IMG/VR virus record: IMGVR_UViG_3300009503_000020
Location: 32,001 to 96,000 of that record
DNA from: a virus
Direction: 5' to 3' (one strand)
DNA length: 64,000 bases
Below are positions 13,145-32,519 of the stretch, piece after piece; positions within the stretch are counted from its first letter, which is position 1, and each line of letters begins with the position of its first letter. The position numbers and the translations under genes are program-made. Below the pieces are notes generated by a model. The model was not told the DNA's origin. It saw only the letters and a program-made list of their open reading frames with translations, and did not search any database.

Positions 13145-13633
13145 ATGTCAACTACTCCTCAAGATATAGAGAAGAAGTTTCCTGAAGTTTATGGCTATTC
13201 TATAAAGAAGGAGAGGAAAGAACAGGTAACCATAAAAGGAATTTCTCTTGAGATAAAGAAGTATACAACTACACTTAAGACAGGTGGAATTAGAGTCTCA
13301 CTTATAGACAACACTAGTGAGTTCTTTCTCAAGTACAATGAGTACCTTGCATCTATAGAGAGTTTTAGACCTGCAGAAGAGAAAGCAATGAACATGTGGT
13401 CTTTCACTACTCTGTGCACAGCAGATCCAAGTCTAGAAGAGATGGGAGGAGCAGGGTTCTATGTGTATCAGAATCACCTTGTGTTCAATGAAGAAGAGAA
13501 GAGTGCTCCTCCTATAGATAGACTTACTAAGTTTATAGAACACTACAAGAAGAAGTTTGGTATTAGAACAAGACTCAAGGAAGATGATTTCTCAGACTTG
13601 GATGTTCTAGAGAGGACAACAGAGAATGAATAA
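13145..13633 (+). CDS. Hypothetical protein in the AAA-vWA operon
   Basis: ORF track; tight coupling on both sides. Confidence 0.65.
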   Translation: MSTTPQDIEKKFPEVYGYSIKKERKEQVTIKGISLEIKKYTTTLKTGGIRVSLIDNTSEFFLKYNEYLASIESFRPAEEKAMNMWSFTTLCTADPSLEEMGGAGFYVYQNHLVFNEEEKSAPPIDRLTKFIEHYKKKFGIRTRLKEDDFSDLDVLERTTENE

Positions 13634-15449
13634 GGAACTAATTACTAAGAAGAATTTCAACAAGATAGCTAAGAGATTAGAGGAACTGCAAGTACGCAGT
13701 TGGAAGATGTCTAGACCTATATTCCCTAAGATGACTCTATACTTCAAAGTATTTCCTATAGAATCATATTTCTCTACTGTAGGTCAGATCTGGTGGGTCA
13801 CACCTTACTGGAGAGGAGATGCTTTTGCTCTCTCTATTTTGTTCCATGAAGGACATCACTGGAACATCTATCCACTAGATATATTTAGAGCTATCAAAGA
13901 TATCTTTGAAGCTAGAAGACTTCTTGCTGAGGAGATAGGATTCGTACCTGAGAAAATCCAGAAGTCTCTTTGGAGAGTAGAAGAAGACTGGAGTCAGTTT
14001 GCATACTCTACAGCTGAACTTCAGTTCGTTGAAAATATTCTCGGAGATTACTGTCTTGAAGGAACGACAAAGATCCTACTCCCTGGTGGTGCAGAAAAAG
14101 AAATCAGAGAGATAAAAGAAGGAGATATAATCCTAGGAGTAAGAAATGGAAAAGTGGTACCTACTCGGGTCTTAGGGATTGGGAAAACTCTTCACACTGA
14201 AATAATTGAATTCAGAGATGGAAAACGCCATTTAGTCACCTCCCCTGAACATAAAATTTTTTCTTATCCAGACTTTCAACTTAAACTAGCAAAAGAGTTT
14301 AATAATGAGAGTGTTTACTATTACTTGGATGATAAACTTGGGCAAAAGAACCTGGACAGAAGAACAGATACAATTCCTGAAGGAAAATTATCCGAAGATG
14401 ACAGCAAAAGAAATAGCAGCAAGACTAGGAAAAACAGTTCACAGTGTTCAAGGCTATGTTTACCTTCACGTAGATACTCTCTCCAAGCGAGAACTCTCAA
14501 GAAAAAGATGCCACCAGATAGTCACTTCATTTACAGAAACGGAGAAAGCTTATATTGCTGGAATTGTCGATGGGGAAGGAACGATTACGATCGTGGGAAA
14601 GAAATATCGACAACCAATGATATCAATATCCAACACTTCTTTCCTTCTCAAAGAATATTTCGAACGACTTGGCTTTCAAACTCGAGTGAAGACAAATTGG
14701 GCAGGAACAGAATACTTCTCACTTTACATAACAGGGCAACACAATATCAGAGAATTCCTAGTTGCTATCAAAGATTACTTAGTAATCAAGAAGGAACATG
14801 CCCAACTCTTGCTGCAGTGGTTAGAACTGAAAGCTCAACAGAAGGTTCATGGCAAAGACACTCCTCAAATGGAGGAACTATTCAAACGCTTGAAACTTTT
14901 GAACTCAAGACATCCACATTTAAGGTTATCAGAAAGAAAAAAACTGATCCAGTAATTCTCTATGATCTAAAAACTTCAACCGGTTCATTCTTTGCTAACA
15001 GGATTCTAGTCCACAATTGTGTGAATTTACATATACATGACAACTATCCTCTAGTGTGGAATGATCTCTGGCATTTCCTCTCAGTTGAAGGTACATTTTA
15101 TGAGAAAGAGAAAGCACTCAAGAGAGACACTACTTTCCTGTTATACTTAGCAGTCTATCCAGAGCTAATTCCAGGTTTAGAACAGATACCAGTCAAAGAG
15201 AAAGTTTCTGAAGAGAAGATACCTAAGATAGCTCACATTGTTAAACTATGTAAAGAAGGAAGGATTTCTACTCCCTATGCTATTAAAGAGCTAGCTAAGT
15301 TATTCCATGACAATATCCAACAGGATCTCAAAGAAGCAGAAGGAGAAGGGAAAGAAGGAGATTTCAAATGCCCCAAATGCCACTCAGATGAAGGGTGGGA
15401 GATAGTCTCATACTTTGATGAACAGAAAGGAAAGTGGTTAGATGTCTGA
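13626..15449 (+). CDS. vWA-associated zincin metallopeptidase (DUF2201 N-terminal-like), intein-containing precursor; 285 aa after splicing
   Basis: LFHEGHH; the spliced junction restores N.LGDY-CVN, matching the N.A.D..IN motif; ends with CPKC. Confidence 0.75.
   Translation: MNKELITKKNFNKIAKRLEELQVRSWKMSRPIFPKMTLYFKVFPIESYFSTVGQIWWVTPYWRGDAFALSILFHEGHHWNIYPLDIFRAIKDIFEARRLLAEEIGFVPEKIQKSLWRVEEDWSQFAYSTAELQFVENILGDYCLEGTTKILLPGGAEKEIREIKEGDIILGVRNGKVVPTRVLGIGKTLHTEIIEFRDGKRHLVTSPEHKIFSYPDFQLKLAKEFNNESVYYYLDDKLGQKNLDRRTDTIPEGKLSEDDSKRNSSKTRKNSSQCSRLCLPSRRYSLQARTLKKKMPPDSHFIYRNGESLYCWNCRWGRNDYDRGKEISTTNDINIQHFFPSQRIFRTTWLSNSSEDKLGRNRILLTLHNRATQYQRIPSCYQRLLSNQEGTCPTLAAVVRTESSTEGSWQRHSSNGGTIQTLETFELKTSTFKVIRKKKTDPVILYDLKTSTGSFFANRILVHNCVNLHIHDNYPLVWNDLWHFLSVEGTFYEKEKALKRDTTFLLYLAVYPELIPGLEQIPVKEKVSEEKIPKIAHIVKLCKEGRISTPYAIKELAKLFHDNIQQDLKEAEGEGKEGDFKCPKCHSDEGWEIVSYFDEQKGKWLDV
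14052..15017 (+). mobile_element. Intein 1 (322 aa); Hint halves joined by an overprinted linker
   Basis: Block A CLEGTTKILL, block B LVTSPEHKIF, block F ILYDLKT, block G FFANRILVHN, +1 Cys. Confidence 0.93.
14305..14955 (+). CDS. Single-motif LAGLIDADG homing endonuclease with N-terminal HTH, in the +1 frame inside intein 1 (start 14305 or 14329)
   Basis: WTEEQIQFLKENY..MTAKEIAARLGKT HTH; AYIAGIVDGEGTI LAGLIDADG helix; ISISNT; YL.IKKEHA. Confidence 0.9.
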   Translation: MRVFTITWMINLGKRTWTEEQIQFLKENYPKMTAKEIAARLGKTVHSVQGYVYLHVDTLSKRELSRKRCHQIVTSFTETEKAYIAGIVDGEGTITIVGKKYRQPMISISNTSFLLKEYFERLGFQTRVKTNWAGTEYFSLYITGQHNIREFLVAIKDYLVIKKEHAQLLLQWLELKAQQKVHGKDTPQMEELFKRLKLLNSRHPHLRLSERKKLIQ

Positions 15450-18337: not shown

Positions 18338-19891
18338 ATGCAGACTTTAATTCATTCAGGAGTGTATTTACCAACATATAATCCAATAGGTCTGACAATC
18401 AAGTTCAAAGGAAAAGAGATAGAACTAGAGCCTGAAGCAGAGTGCATGGCAATTGCTTTTGCTAAGAAATTTGATACACCATACTTAAATGATAATGTGT
18501 TTGTTACCAACTTCCTTCTAGACTTCTCTACCAAGCTAGGAATAGAGAAAGAAGATGGTTGTTTAGACTTAAAGAACTATGACTTTGAAGCTATCAAAAA
18601 ATACTTAGAAGAGACAAAAGCTAAGACAGAGGGTATGACTAAAGAAGAGAAGAAATTAGCTACTACTTTAAAGAAACAACTAAGAGAGCAACTGAAAGAA
18701 AAATATGGATATGCCTTAGTAGATGGAGTGAAGACTCCTGTAATGAATTGGGCAGTTGAACCTCCCTCGATATTTATGAGCAAAGGAAAGAACCCTCTCA
18801 GAGGACACTGGAAGAGAGCAATACGCAAAGAAGAGATTATACTTAATTCCTCTCAACCAATGGAAGGTTGGAATACAGTCTGGGAACCTAATGAGTTGTG
18901 GATAGCTAAATGGAAGGATGTCTTTGACCCTACTCGTTGGAAGTATGTCTGGTTGTCACCTGCCTCTCAGCTTAGACAAGAAAGAGAAAAGAAGAAGTTT
19001 GAAAAGGCAGAGAACTTAGCTAAGAATATTAAGAAACTAGAAGTATTCATAGACAAAGAACTGAAGAGTCCAGATGTAACTAGGAGAAAGCTAGCTACTG
19101 TATGTTGGTTAATGAAGAATTTAGGTATTCGAGTCGGAGATGAACGTATCGCAGGAGAACGTGGCACACTTGGTTGTACTACTCTCAAGGCAGAGAATGT
19201 CAAACTAGGTAAAGATGGTACAGTTTATCTAGACTTCACAGGCAAAGATTATGTTCATTGGATGAAGTCTTTCAAGCCACCAGAACAAGTCTACAAGAAC
19301 TTACAAGAGTTCAAAGAAACAGCTAAGGATGACTTTCTCTTTAAAGGACTTGACTCCAACAAAGTTTCTCGCTTCCTCAGAGAAGTCTTGCCTGGGATGT
19401 CAGCTAAGGTCTTCAGAACTTATCTAGCAGGAACAGTGTGGGATGAGAATGCTAAGGAGCATCTCAAGCTAGTAGATGGAAGAACTTCACTCCCTGTTAG
19501 ACTTTACCTGTTTAAGATGACTAACTTAGCAGTAGCCAAAACATTAAACCATAGAAGAGCCTTACCAAAGAATTACCAAGAGAGAATTGCTAAGAAAGAA
19601 GAACAACTAAAGAAGGAAACAGCTAAGCTAGAATCCTTGAAAGAAGCTCCTGAGTCTAAACTACTAAAACAACAGAGGAAGGCAGAGAAAATAGCTTGTG
19701 AGTTAAATCTCTTGAAAGAGACAGCAGAGTGGAACCTGAACACTAGTCTGACTAGTTATATTTCCCCTAAGAAGACACTCTACTTCTGCAAGAAAGCTGG
19801 ACTTAAACCAGAACAGATATATTCCAAGAGTCTCCAAGAGAAGTTTAGTTGGATAATTAAGAGGGATGAGGACGATACAGAGGAGAGCTGA
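18338..19891 (+). CDS. top1: DNA topoisomerase IB, eukaryote/TACK-like large form
   Basis: Catalytic pentad motifs IRVG, FTGKD, AKVFRTY, LNH, TSLTSY; coiled-coil linker; N-terminal TLIHSGV. Confidence 0.93.
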   Translation: MQTLIHSGVYLPTYNPIGLTIKFKGKEIELEPEAECMAIAFAKKFDTPYLNDNVFVTNFLLDFSTKLGIEKEDGCLDLKNYDFEAIKKYLEETKAKTEGMTKEEKKLATTLKKQLREQLKEKYGYALVDGVKTPVMNWAVEPPSIFMSKGKNPLRGHWKRAIRKEEIILNSSQPMEGWNTVWEPNELWIAKWKDVFDPTRWKYVWLSPASQLRQEREKKKFEKAENLAKNIKKLEVFIDKELKSPDVTRRKLATVCWLMKNLGIRVGDERIAGERGTLGCTTLKAENVKLGKDGTVYLDFTGKDYVHWMKSFKPPEQVYKNLQEFKETAKDDFLFKGLDSNKVSRFLREVLPGMSAKVFRTYLAGTVWDENAKEHLKLVDGRTSLPVRLYLFKMTNLAVAKTLNHRRALPKNYQERIAKKEEQLKKETAKLESLKEAPESKLLKQQRKAEKIACELNLLKETAEWNLNTSLTSYISPKKTLYFCKKAGLKPEQIYSKSLQEKFSWIIKRDEDDTEES

Positions 19892-30545: not shown

Positions 30546-32519
30546 ATGGAAGCTTTGCAGGTATTAAGCAAGAAAGAGATTATGGAATTAAAGAAGAAAA
30601 TAGAACCTATAAAGAAACTAGCTCTGCATGACGATGCAGATGGTGTAACTTCTGCAGTACTTATGTCTTATGTGTTTAAGATAAACAAAGTATGGGCTCC
30701 AGATGACTTTGGAGAGTGGCCTGTTGCTCCTTATAAAGTTCAAGGGCAAGAACAACTAGAGCTTCCACCAGATGTTTGTGTGGATATGGTACCAGCTAAT
30801 CCTGAATGGGTTGGTTTAGCAATAGACCACCATCCAAATCACCCTCCTGAAGGAAAGAGAAGTTACCAGCTTATCTATGGAGAAGCACCTGCTTCTGTTA
30901 TTGTCTATACTCTCTTTAAAGAATTAATTCCACAAGAACATAGATGGAAAGTAGTAGTTGGCTGCCTGTCCAAGGACACGGAAATACTTACTCCAAGTGG
31001 GCAAATTGAAATCAAAGATCTTAATACTTTGGATTCTGGAATAGGTCTAGATGAACATGGAAAGCTTTGTAAAAATTTACTGTTTACAATACCTAAAGGA
31101 CGGAAAGAACTGCTGCGAATCACTACCAGAAAGAGAGAGATATTAGTAACTCCTGAGCATAGGCTGTTTACACAAAGAGGTCTTGTTGAAGCAAAGGACT
31201 TAAATATTGGAGACTACTTGGTGGTATACTTGAGGAGTTTAGATGACTTCTCAAAGAAAGTTAGAAGCAAACAGGAAGAATTTAGAGAAAGCACGCCAAG
31301 TCTTAAAACTATTAAGCGGAAATCCCAGCTGGAAGAGCTGGTGGCTTGGGAGAGTGAAAGCATCAATTACAGAAGAGAAAAGACAGAAGCTCAGAGAAGC
31401 AGCTATGAAGAATGGAACAAGAGAACGAATTCTTCTTCACAATCTCAGTCATCGAGAGACGAGAATGTGCCCAATATGTGGGAAAGAGTTTACGGTAAAG
31501 AAATCTTCAAGAAAGAAATATTGCTCAATGAGATGCTCAGGCAAAGCAAACTTGAAGAACCTTGGCAAATATACAGGTTCACACAGTGGGCGAGAAAACC
31601 CAAATTGGAAAGGTGGAACTTCAGCCAAGCCATATCATTGGGAAATGAAGAAAAAAGAATGGAGAAACCTTTTGTATCAGAAGGTCGGGTACAAATGTCA
31701 ACTTTGTGGCAACAAAGGCAAACTCAACATTCATCACATAAACAGAGACAAGATGGATGGAAGGCCAGAGAATTTGCTTATACTCTGCCCAAGTTGTCAT
31801 TTAAAAGTTCACAAATTGGTTTGGAAAGGATTGAAAGCATAGACTATGAGGGCAGAGAAGAAGTATTTGACATACACTGGGCCTCTACCAACAATTTCTT
31901 CTTAGCTAATGGAATTCTTTCCCACAATTGCGTTGGAGACGGACAACCAGAACTTATACCTCCAGAGATATGGAGAGAATTTCCTATCTTACTGGAAGAG
32001 TCTGTTACTCCAAGAGAGAGATATGGAAAGCTAGAGACTTCTAATTATCCTCTGTATTTAAGATTAAGTTCAGGCATCAATGCAGTATGTAAGATACCTG
32101 AGAAATGGTACGTAGGATATGCTATATTACGCAATGCAAAGTCACCTTGGGATCTAATCAATGATTCCTCTCTTAAGTCTGCTAAAGAACTTGTTGAGAG
32201 TGAAAGAGAAAGGATCTACAGGGAGACAAGTCCCATACAACTCAGAAATGGAATAAGAGTCTGGGCGTTCCAGTCTGAGACCAAGATAGAGAGAACTCTA
32301 GCTTGGGAAATGTGGGATACTGACAAACGCACTATTGTAGCTATAAACTCTGCTACTGGAAGAGGTAGCATAAGAGGTACATTAGCTACTTTAGTGTATG
32401 AGCATTTGACTGCTCATGGTTTCAAGGCAAGTGGACATCCAGGGTTTGGAGGTTTAAAACTTAAACCTGACCAGACTTGGGAGGATGTGTACCACTGTCT
32501 TGCAAATCTAAAGATTTAA
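30546..32519 (+). CDS. DHH-family phosphoesterase (RecJ/GAN-like), intein-containing precursor; 335 aa after splicing
   Basis: HDDADG, VD, IDHH; spliced motif VVG-CVGD; DHHA1-like GSIRG and GHPGFGG. Confidence 0.85.
   Translation: MEALQVLSKKEIMELKKKIEPIKKLALHDDADGVTSAVLMSYVFKINKVWAPDDFGEWPVAPYKVQGQEQLELPPDVCVDMVPANPEWVGLAIDHHPNHPPEGKRSYQLIYGEAPASVIVYTLFKELIPQEHRWKVVVGCLSKDTEILTPSGQIEIKDLNTLDSGIGLDEHGKLCKNLLFTIPKGRKELLRITTRKREILVTPEHRLFTQRGLVEAKDLNIGDYLVVYLRSLDDFSKKVRSKQEEFRESTPSLKTIKRKSQLEELVAWESESINYRREKTEAQRSSYEEWNKRTNSSSQSQSSRDENVPNMWERVYGKEIFKKEILLNEMLRQSKLEEPWQIYRFTQWARKPKLERWNFSQAISLGNEEKRMEKPFVSEGRVQMSTLWQQRQTQHSSHKQRQDGWKAREFAYTLPKLSFKSSQIGLERIESIDYEGREEVFDIHWASTNNFFLANGILSHNCVGDGQPELIPPEIWREFPILLEESVTPRERYGKLETSNYPLYLRLSSGINAVCKIPEKWYVGYAILRNAKSPWDLINDSSLKSAKELVESERERIYRETSPIQLRNGIRVWAFQSETKIERTLAWEMWDTDKRTIVAINSATGRGSIRGTLATLVYEHLTAHGFKASGHPGFGGLKLKPDQTWEDVYHCLANLKI
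30963..31928 (+). mobile_element. Intein 2 (322 aa); Hint halves joined by an overprinted linker
   Basis: Block A CLSKDTEILT, block B ILVTPEHRLFT, block F EEVFDI, block G FFLANGILSHN, +1 Cys. Confidence 0.95.
31243..31842 (+). CDS. HNH homing endonuclease with Zn finger, in the +1 frame inside intein 2
   Basis: SD GAGGAG before ATG; CPICGKEF..KYCSMRC; NPNWKGG; CQLCG..LNIHHINRD..D...NLLILCPSCH..VH. Confidence 0.92.
   Translation: MTSQRKLEANRKNLEKARQVLKLLSGNPSWKSWWLGRVKASITEEKRQKLREAAMKNGTRERILLHNLSHRETRMCPICGKEFTVKKSSRKKYCSMRCSGKANLKNLGKYTGSHSGRENPNWKGGTSAKPYHWEMKKKEWRNLLYQKVGYKCQLCGNKGKLNIHHINRDKMDGRPENLLILCPSCHLKVHKLVWKGLKA

Follow-up and report, generated by a model that had tools for sequence, protein, structure and literature searches.

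Inteins that carry their homing-endonuclease gene (HEG) outside the reading frame of the host protein are an architecture already described, in preprints of 2025–2026. Among actinobacteriophages, inteins with out-of-frame or antisense homing endonucleases have been reported, and they are proposed to have arisen when a free-standing HEG invaded an intein (Gosselin, Arsenault & Gogarten, bioRxiv 10.1101/2025.01.02.630785). A cyanobacterial dnaX intein possesses an out-of-frame LAGLIDADG HEG (Phillips, DeSimone & Gogarten, bioRxiv 10.64898/2026.09.14.751524), first noted by Gorbalenya 1998 as cited in that preprint. Related arrangements include the hidden HNH insertions of the ShiLan type, which are actively homing in phage DNA methylases (Arsenault et al., Genes 2025, PMC11855218), and fractured genes, in which split inteins flank a free-standing HEG (Dassa et al. 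2009, PMC2677866). As far as these reports were consulted, an out-of-frame HNH nuclease inside a true intein is not among the cases given. Here we describe such an element in a 64,000-nucleotide (nt) stretch of viral DNA (hereafter the window; bases 32001–96000 of the 120.7-kb IMG/VR virus record IMGVR_UViG_3300009503_000020, which has direct terminal repeats). The element is an intein in a gene of the DHH phosphoesterase superfamily, and an HNH nuclease gene lies in the +1 frame between the two halves of its splicing (Hint) domain (Table 1). We consider it likely that a separate HNH cistron, a host-frame tether, internal initiation and homing belong together in one account of this locus.

An initial annotation of the window, made from the sequence alone, had placed an intein at 30963–31928, called its in-frame linker nonsense, and read from the +1 frame (31243–31842) a zinc finger, an NPNWKGG motif and a complete HNH domain whose stop falls in the first codons of block F, and each of these statements was borne out. 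Going by its sequence, the element is a genuine intein of class 1, inserted at motif IV of a viral gene of the DHH phosphoesterase type. All splicing residues are present: block B reads T63-P-E-H66, with H66 invariant across nine aligned inteins, and the C-terminus ends in SHN, followed by the Cys+1 nucleophile. Pfam Intein_splicing (PF14890) matches the intein with 60.4 bits (cut-off 35.8), solved mini-inteins match the Hint halves weakly (E-value 0.003–0.005; gp41-1 for the N-terminal half), and the block-G motif NNFFLANGILSHN is conserved in four further loci (L015–L018). Over the N-terminal Hint half the host frame alone is open, the other two frames holding 6 and 8 stops. The linker that follows in the host frame is hydrophilic (58% K/R/E/S/Q/N; grand average of hydropathy −1.32), and a search of it against Pfam found no nuclease or other family at a significant level. 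A fractured gene with a split intein was also considered and rejected, the host being one 657-codon open reading frame (ORF) without internal stop.

The nested protein has a helical N-terminus, a CxxC...CxxxC zinc ribbon, the NPNWKGG motif and an HNH core with two CxxC pairs, and it scores above the Pfam HNH cut-off (PF01844; 25.7 bits versus 21.4). In an alignment of 26 sequences H164 and H165 never vary and C155 and N177 hardly do, and the sequence also holds C152, C182, C185, H186 and H190; neither of the CxxC pairs is missing, nor is the distal His. AlphaFold2 performed poorly on the single sequence (a pLDDT, or predicted local distance difference test score, of 43.7), and we therefore used a model built on the 26-sequence alignment, whose mean pLDDT is 79.6, with 88–97 in the core and ~95 in the zinc ribbon. 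The family profile matches the HNH region of IscB (9.6e-9) and the HNH endonuclease of phage GVE2 (2.1e-7), and Foldseek against the PDB returned local matches (47–66 residues, 1.7–3.5 Å) to Cap5, IscB, McrA and HNH-like DotN, with weak whole-model E-values (0.02–0.1). On this alignment and model the nuclease looks competent. No identical entry for the HNH protein was found in a collection of 5.8 billion proteins.

Over the stretch that the HNH gene shares with the host-frame linker, neither frame contains a stop and both score as coding (0.16 and 0.12 bits per codon), against −0.68 ± 0.16 bits per codon for ordinary genes read in a shifted frame; the third frame over the overlap holds 14 stops. 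Since off-frame stops make up 9–10% of codons in the shifted frames of this genome's long ORFs, the chance of 199 open codons is ~1e-8, and at such a low GC content (38%) open alternative frames cannot arise by chance. The free-standing relatives of the nuclease look different in this regard: ten of them average 21 stops over 200 codons of the equivalent frame, and in all 11 neither alternative frame stays open across the HNH match. We then defined at-risk sites as those HNH wobble positions that precede AA, AG or GA, where a T would begin a host-frame stop. The HNH gene places a wobble T at 0 of 77 such sites, against 31% T in the same contexts in ordinary genes of the virus, and its pyrimidine-ending codons end in C in 17/17 at-risk contexts versus 17/59 elsewhere. 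Across the nine nested nuclease genes of this layout (introduced below) the count of wobble T is 0/682, with C/(C+T) at 1.00 at at-risk sites and 0.23 elsewhere (controls, 30–31% T). The host frame is kept stop-free purely by the codon choice of the HNH gene, C over T at at-risk wobble sites, and the complete lack of wobble T at the 77 sites indicates that selection keeps both frames open.

Comparing the two frames among the seven HNH-type members of this layout, whose inteins share 25–30% identity, we found that the nuclease frame scores above the host frame in 21/21 pairs (means 176 vs 72), and because it is the better conserved frame at this identity, the HNH reading is the one under protein-level selection. 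Motifs that recur in the host frame (e.g., KLERWNF over NPNWKGG) are, on these alignments, by-products. The initial annotation had the HNH gene overprinted on the intein; the reverse is probably the case, with the host-frame linker as the derived reading, because the HNH protein has free-standing relatives and occupies the conserved frame.

How the nested gene would be expressed can be approached from its start site. The GAGGAG that the initial annotation reported 5 nt before the ATG at 31243, at the end of the N-terminal Hint half, is located correctly, and Shine-Dalgarno (SD)-like motifs stand at −18 to −4 of 48 of the 78 ATG-started ORFs of this virus (62%, versus 13% of random positions). 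Given this wide use of SD motifs, the GAGGAG, 5-nt spacer and ATG look like a genuine initiation site. In the +1 frame there are stops upstream of the ATG at 31231–31233 and at 31240–31242, the latter a TAG directly before the ATG, so that a ribosome shifting frame would have no way into the HNH frame before 31243, and no slippery site is visible in the host-frame codons at this point (TTA GAT GAC). Internal initiation at 31243 is thus the most likely route of expression, and the preference of the initial annotation for it over frameshifting holds as the route best supported by the sequence, given the right SD spacing, the +1 stop before the ATG and the missing slippery site.

The same start site is predicted to lie within an RNA hairpin (−11.6 kcal/mol, z = −3.36; 1 of 200 shuffles folds equally well) that buries the SD; the start codon contributes its A and U to the loop and its G as the first base of the 3′ arm. 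If real, this hairpin would hold HNH translation at a low level and couple it to ribosomes that unwind the region in the host frame. The expression of HNH may accordingly depend on ribosomes passing in the host frame, which would make it independent of splicing but not of precursor translation. The sequestration of the ribosome-binding site (RBS) in intron-encoded I-TevI is comparable in principle. As a side observation, four HNH-type members have a stop in the nuclease frame 0–1 codon before the nested ATG and inside an A/T-rich tract (positions in Table 1), and this stop may be a remnant of a cassette boundary or part of an initiation signal.

Mobility was assessed by comparing alleles of the host gene. 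The 1974-nt gene recurs without a difference in an ENA MEGAHIT contig (L013) and in a JGI contig from another sample (L014), whose flanks differ from the window by 4–6 single-nucleotide polymorphisms (SNPs), and contigs of a second hot-spring run (X2) cover most of the gene, including both intein junctions and the HNH start, with zero differences. An assembly error, which the initial annotation had named as a way for its reading to fail, is contradicted by this identity in three further assemblies. The search for empty alleles that it had proposed was run and found the intein precisely absent from viruses ~98% identical. A search with the C-extein returned 29 homologues of 301–338 amino acids (aa), none with an intein, and in most of these empty homologues the insertion site reads ...VVG-A-VGDGQPE, where the occupied allele would have Cys after splicing. 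One homologue, P0175 (locus L025, from another JGI sample), is a 99% identical protein that is exactly intein-less; its DNA is 97.7% identical to the window up to 30961 and 98.3% identical from 31932 onwards, with GCA (Ala) as the junction codon in place of the TGC of the filled allele. Contigs from a sediment (X3) and from a hot spring (X4) also join across the intein, such that filled alleles are seen in X1, X2, L013 and L014, and empty ones in L025, X3 and X4. This presence of filled and empty alleles among near-identical viruses is the signature of a mobile or recently mobile intein.

Two observations on the flanks stand beside this pattern. Relative to L025, the N-extein carries 21 SNPs in 416 nt (~5%; window 30553–30932) and the C-extein 8 in 588 nt (1.4%), and three silent changes in the filled allele adjoin the intein junctions. 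The excess in the N-extein and the junction changes could represent a co-conversion tract; at least the GTT codon 3′ of the junction is also present in the empty X4 allele, so that no firm conclusion can be drawn from them.

Table 1. Features of the intein-bearing gene and related elements; positions are those of the window unless another locus is named.
Feature	Position	Strand	Basis or remark
Host gene: DHH-superfamily phosphoesterase precursor with intein	30546..32519	+	Single uninterrupted ORF, 657 aa
N-extein, 139 aa, ending ...VVVG	30546..30962	+	Alignment to empty alleles; L025 DNA match stops at 30961
Intein, 966 nt / 322 codons, host frame	30963..31928	+	Cys1, TxxH at residues 63–66, His-Asn end; precisely absent from L025, X3 and X4 contigs
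N-terminal Hint half (blocks A, B)	30963..31241	+	Weak match to mini-intein gp41-1; alignment to L015 intein
Predicted 10-bp RNA hairpin	31230..31254	+	Single-sequence fold; arms 31230–31239 / 31245–31254, 5-nt loop 31240–31244
Shine-Dalgarno-like GAGGAG	31232..31237	+	Sequence; 5-nt spacer to ATG 31243
Host-frame linker over HNH gene, ~200 codons	31242..31841	+	0 stops, positive coding score; no known domain
HNH homing-endonuclease gene, +1 frame, 199 aa	31243..31842	+	Pfam HNH; conserved residues; alignment-based model; stop 31840–31842 within first strand of block F
C-terminal Hint half (blocks F, G, ...NNFFLANGILSHN)	31818..31928	+	Pfam and PDB alignments
C-extein, first residues Cys-Val-Gly-Asp (empty alleles: Ala-Val-Gly-Asp)	31929..32519	+	Comparison with empty alleles
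Other intein of the virus (intein 1), 966 nt	14052–15017 in 13626–15449; +1 ORF 14305–14955		Single-motif LAGLIDADG gene
Near-ATG stops in nuclease frame	31240–31242; L019:879–881; L015:457–459; L020:2273–2275		

Beyond this locus, the layout recurs in distant inteins. The whole-protein search found one distant relative, P0016 (locus L015), an intein in a Zot-like ATPase gene that holds a 224-aa NUMOD3-HNH ORF in the +1 frame. With a profile of these two host-frame inteins we searched 1.84 billion representative proteins; among the matches listed, five besides P0016 span the whole intein and a further one (P0165) spans the first 167 profile positions. The DNA of all six (L019–L024) contains a +1 ORF of 224–322 codons confined to the intein, which sits in four terminase-like genes at Walker B, in one MCM gene at the P-loop, and in one helicase gene at motif II (DE/CH). 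Five of these nested ORFs are zinc-ribbon HNH genes (three above the Pfam HNH cut-off, two assigned by alignment of the HNH motif) and the sixth is DUF559/Vsr-like. On the six contigs no nested ORF had been called as a gene. Gene callers miss such nested genes, and the inteins that carry them are consequently annotated as nuclease-less. No related locus was confirmed when viral contigs were scanned with the whole protein and, likewise, with the two-intein alignment.

The virus itself carries a second example in its other intein, whose +1 ORF matches Pfam LAGLIDADG_3 (E-value 3.6e-5) and has a wobble T at 0/59 at-risk sites; no clear SD precedes its ATG at 14305, and the host gene of this intein has no family match. 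The Hint halves of the two inteins are 31% identical over 72 residues and their linkers are unrelated, and for this reason we took their equal length of 966 nt as coincidence. The clade that shares block G also includes a mini-intein (L016) and an intein with an in-frame nuclease (L017). As a separate observation, a further member of this clade, L018 (…NHNFFLANGILTHN), holds a LAGLIDADG/helix-turn-helix-like ORF at 2–487 and, at the start of a separate ORF at 472–1782, just the C-terminal Hint block, followed by extein; this contig is cut at its 5′ end, and the arrangement looks like a split (‘fractured’) form.

All nine nested nuclease genes lie at +1. We rejected +1 as a significant rule, seeing that a host-frame profile, biased to the same register, served to find the HNH set and that the nine genes represent only about three independent nuclease families (HNH, LAGLIDADG, DUF559/Vsr-like). 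Why +1 would occur at all may have a simple explanation, and we hypothesize that it lies in wobble-based removal of stops. In this register, and in no other, each host-frame stop begins at a nuclease wobble position and is removable by a silent T-to-C change, and in the free-standing HNH genes 231 of 231 host-frame stops could be silently removed in the +1 register versus 90 of 121 in the +2 register. A broader proposal would hold that out-of-frame nuclease inteins form an old, stable and widespread class, that their nuclease is always at +1, and that in this virus host-gene translation sets, through the hairpin, how much nuclease is made; we regard this whole as conceivable but doubtful.

Turning to the host gene, its intein-less homologues (301–338 aa) retain DHH motifs I–IV (DxD, D, DHH, GD), the residues of which are invariant across 20 host-gene homologues. 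The host-family profile matches a DHH-family PAP phosphatase (8a8k, E-value 1.7e-4) and, weakly, archaeal RecJ2 (E-value 0.07), and Pfam DHH on the host protein scores 13.9 bits, under its cut-off of 28.1. By these profile matches the gene would belong to the DHH superfamily, and the case for a specific RecJ identity is weak. The initial annotation had placed the intein in the motif after DHH and equated that motif with its counterpart in RecJ; the first part stands, the insertion point lying three residues before the invariant Gly-Asp of motif IV, and the RecJ equivalence shares the weakness of that identity. A blastn search of the host gene against 50,697 phage records gave no match. Elsewhere the virus encodes a family B DNA polymerase, a eukaryotic-type topoisomerase IB, a Rad51/RadA-like ATPase, an ERCC4 nuclease and tail proteins, and it occurs in hot-spring and sediment metagenomes; among the sequencing runs listed for it, none is recorded as RNA. 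The polymerase, topoisomerase, RadA-like and ERCC4 genes suggest an archaeal host, possibly of the Nitrososphaeria, and the virus is probably a tailed archaeal virus. The topoisomerase IB (window 18338–19891) is itself full-length and eukaryotic-type (Topoisom_I_N, Topoisom_I, Topo_C_assoc; E-values down to 1.8e-53).

To summarize the biology that we consider likely, the HEG would be a separate cistron in the +1 frame between two Hint halves. Ribosomes in the host frame would turn the overlap into ~200 hydrophilic residues in which no domain is recognisable, and this tether would let the Hint halves associate and splice, presumably leaving Cys in place of the ancestral Ala. The HNH protein would be made separately, most likely by internal initiation at the SD and ATG (31232–31245), with the SD-burying hairpin possibly gating this initiation until it is opened by a passing host-frame ribosome. 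The nuclease would then cut intein-less alleles in co-infecting relatives, whereupon repair would copy the whole element in; we infer this homing from the presence and absence of the intein among alleles. Several points weigh against this account. The intein is invariant in all assemblies, so that selection on this copy is not measurable; the origin of the layout would seem to require that ~21 host-frame stops were purged; and the predicted hairpin, taken alone, would hinder initiation at 31243. Moreover, no significant start-site hairpin was found at the nested nuclease starts of the relatives, and most relatives have no SD before the nested gene, so initiation led by an SD is not family-wide.

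Alternative explanations differ from this account either in how the nuclease is made or in whether it is made at all. Nested homing-endonuclease genes in phages can have promoters of their own, and HNH could here have a short mRNA to itself, transcribed from a promoter that lies within the sequence coding for the N-terminal Hint half. An A/T-rich TTAAATATT element ~40 nt upstream of the ATG and A/T-rich tracts 5′ of the nested starts in L015 and L019–L021 would fit such a promoter, but the geometry of SD and hairpin fits regulation at the level of translation, and the promoter type of the probably archaeal host is not reliably scannable; we consider this route unlikely. Considerably less room is left for a programmed +1 frameshift near 31243, which would yield a fusion of N-extein, N-terminal Hint half and HNH. 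In E. coli prfB an SD-like element a few nt upstream of the shift site stimulates +1 frameshifting, a role that GAGGAG might play here with the hairpin as pause signal. Yet the two upstream stops (31231–31233 and 31240–31242) would force the shift to take place exactly at codon 31242–31244, where there is neither a slippery nor a hungry codon, the ATG stands at ideal SD spacing, and the fusion product would be unable to splice, all of which makes frameshifting very improbable.

The HNH ORF might instead be a silent relic, with the intein now only a splicing element that has a long tether. Its invariance across assemblies and the decay stages that the literature predicts for the homing cycle are compatible with this, but 199 codons have stayed open with all catalytic and Zn-binding residues intact, the better conservation of the nuclease frame at 25–30% intein identity implies long-term purifying selection, and the filled/empty polymorphism among ~98% identical viruses suggests recent movement, so that we find a relic improbable, if less so than a frameshift. 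That two compensating indels in assembly or sequencing displaced an ordinary in-frame HNH intein has nothing in its favour beyond prior suspicion, and we can practically dismiss it: the ENA and JGI assemblies give the same gene sequence, as do the X2 contigs over the greater part of it that they span, both junctions included, indels cannot yield a stop-free host frame where ~18–21 stops are expected, and 8/8 other inteins examined share the layout.

Placed among the known systems, the putative HNH cistron nested within an intein resembles each of them in part. As in the actinophage inteins, the splicing domain is intact in the host frame, the nuclease is a second ORF between the splicing blocks and is related to free-standing phage HEGs, and terminase genes are among the hosts. 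The out-of-frame sense-strand case there is endonuclease VII-like and in frame 3, with HNH found in-frame only, whereas here the nuclease is HNH and at +1; the actinophage genomes are high in GC, where open alternative frames are less telling than in a 38% GC hot-spring virus, and the SD, the DHH host gene and the second example in the same genome (LAGLIDADG, +1) set this locus further apart. With the dnaX intein it shares an in-frame linker (disordered there) overlapped by a nuclease ORF (well-folding there), a putative SD before the nested start, and purifying selection on the nuclease frame, but that intein has a LAGLIDADG rather than an HNH nuclease, a cellular host and another host gene, and its frame is labelled ‘+2ORF’. 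The ShiLan-type insertions likewise combine an out-of-frame HNH that has flanking zinc fingers with a host gene kept open; they possess no splicing domain, such that the insert stays in the protein, and their HNH lies in the third frame with no RBS and a proposed leaderless GTG initiation, whereas here true Hint halves flank a gene with an SD and ATG. Fractured genes also place a free-standing-type nuclease gene between N- and C-terminal intein halves, but their host is split, and here one uninterrupted ORF would be spliced in cis. Canonical HNH inteins have the same nuclease family at the same position in Hint, as an in-frame domain rather than as a separate cistron in another frame.

What the locus offers is a natural system, cleaner than usual, for testing how an intein and a homing nuclease of the free-standing type share the same DNA: the low GC content makes open alternative frames telling, an evident SD and ATG and a candidate regulatory hairpin are at hand, two such inteins with different nuclease families occur in one genome, and the filled and empty alleles at ~98% identity are usable directly as homing donor and target. 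Set beside the actinophage, dnaX, ShiLan-type and fractured-gene systems, it extends the described architecture to HNH nucleases in true inteins and to a probable archaeal tailed virus.

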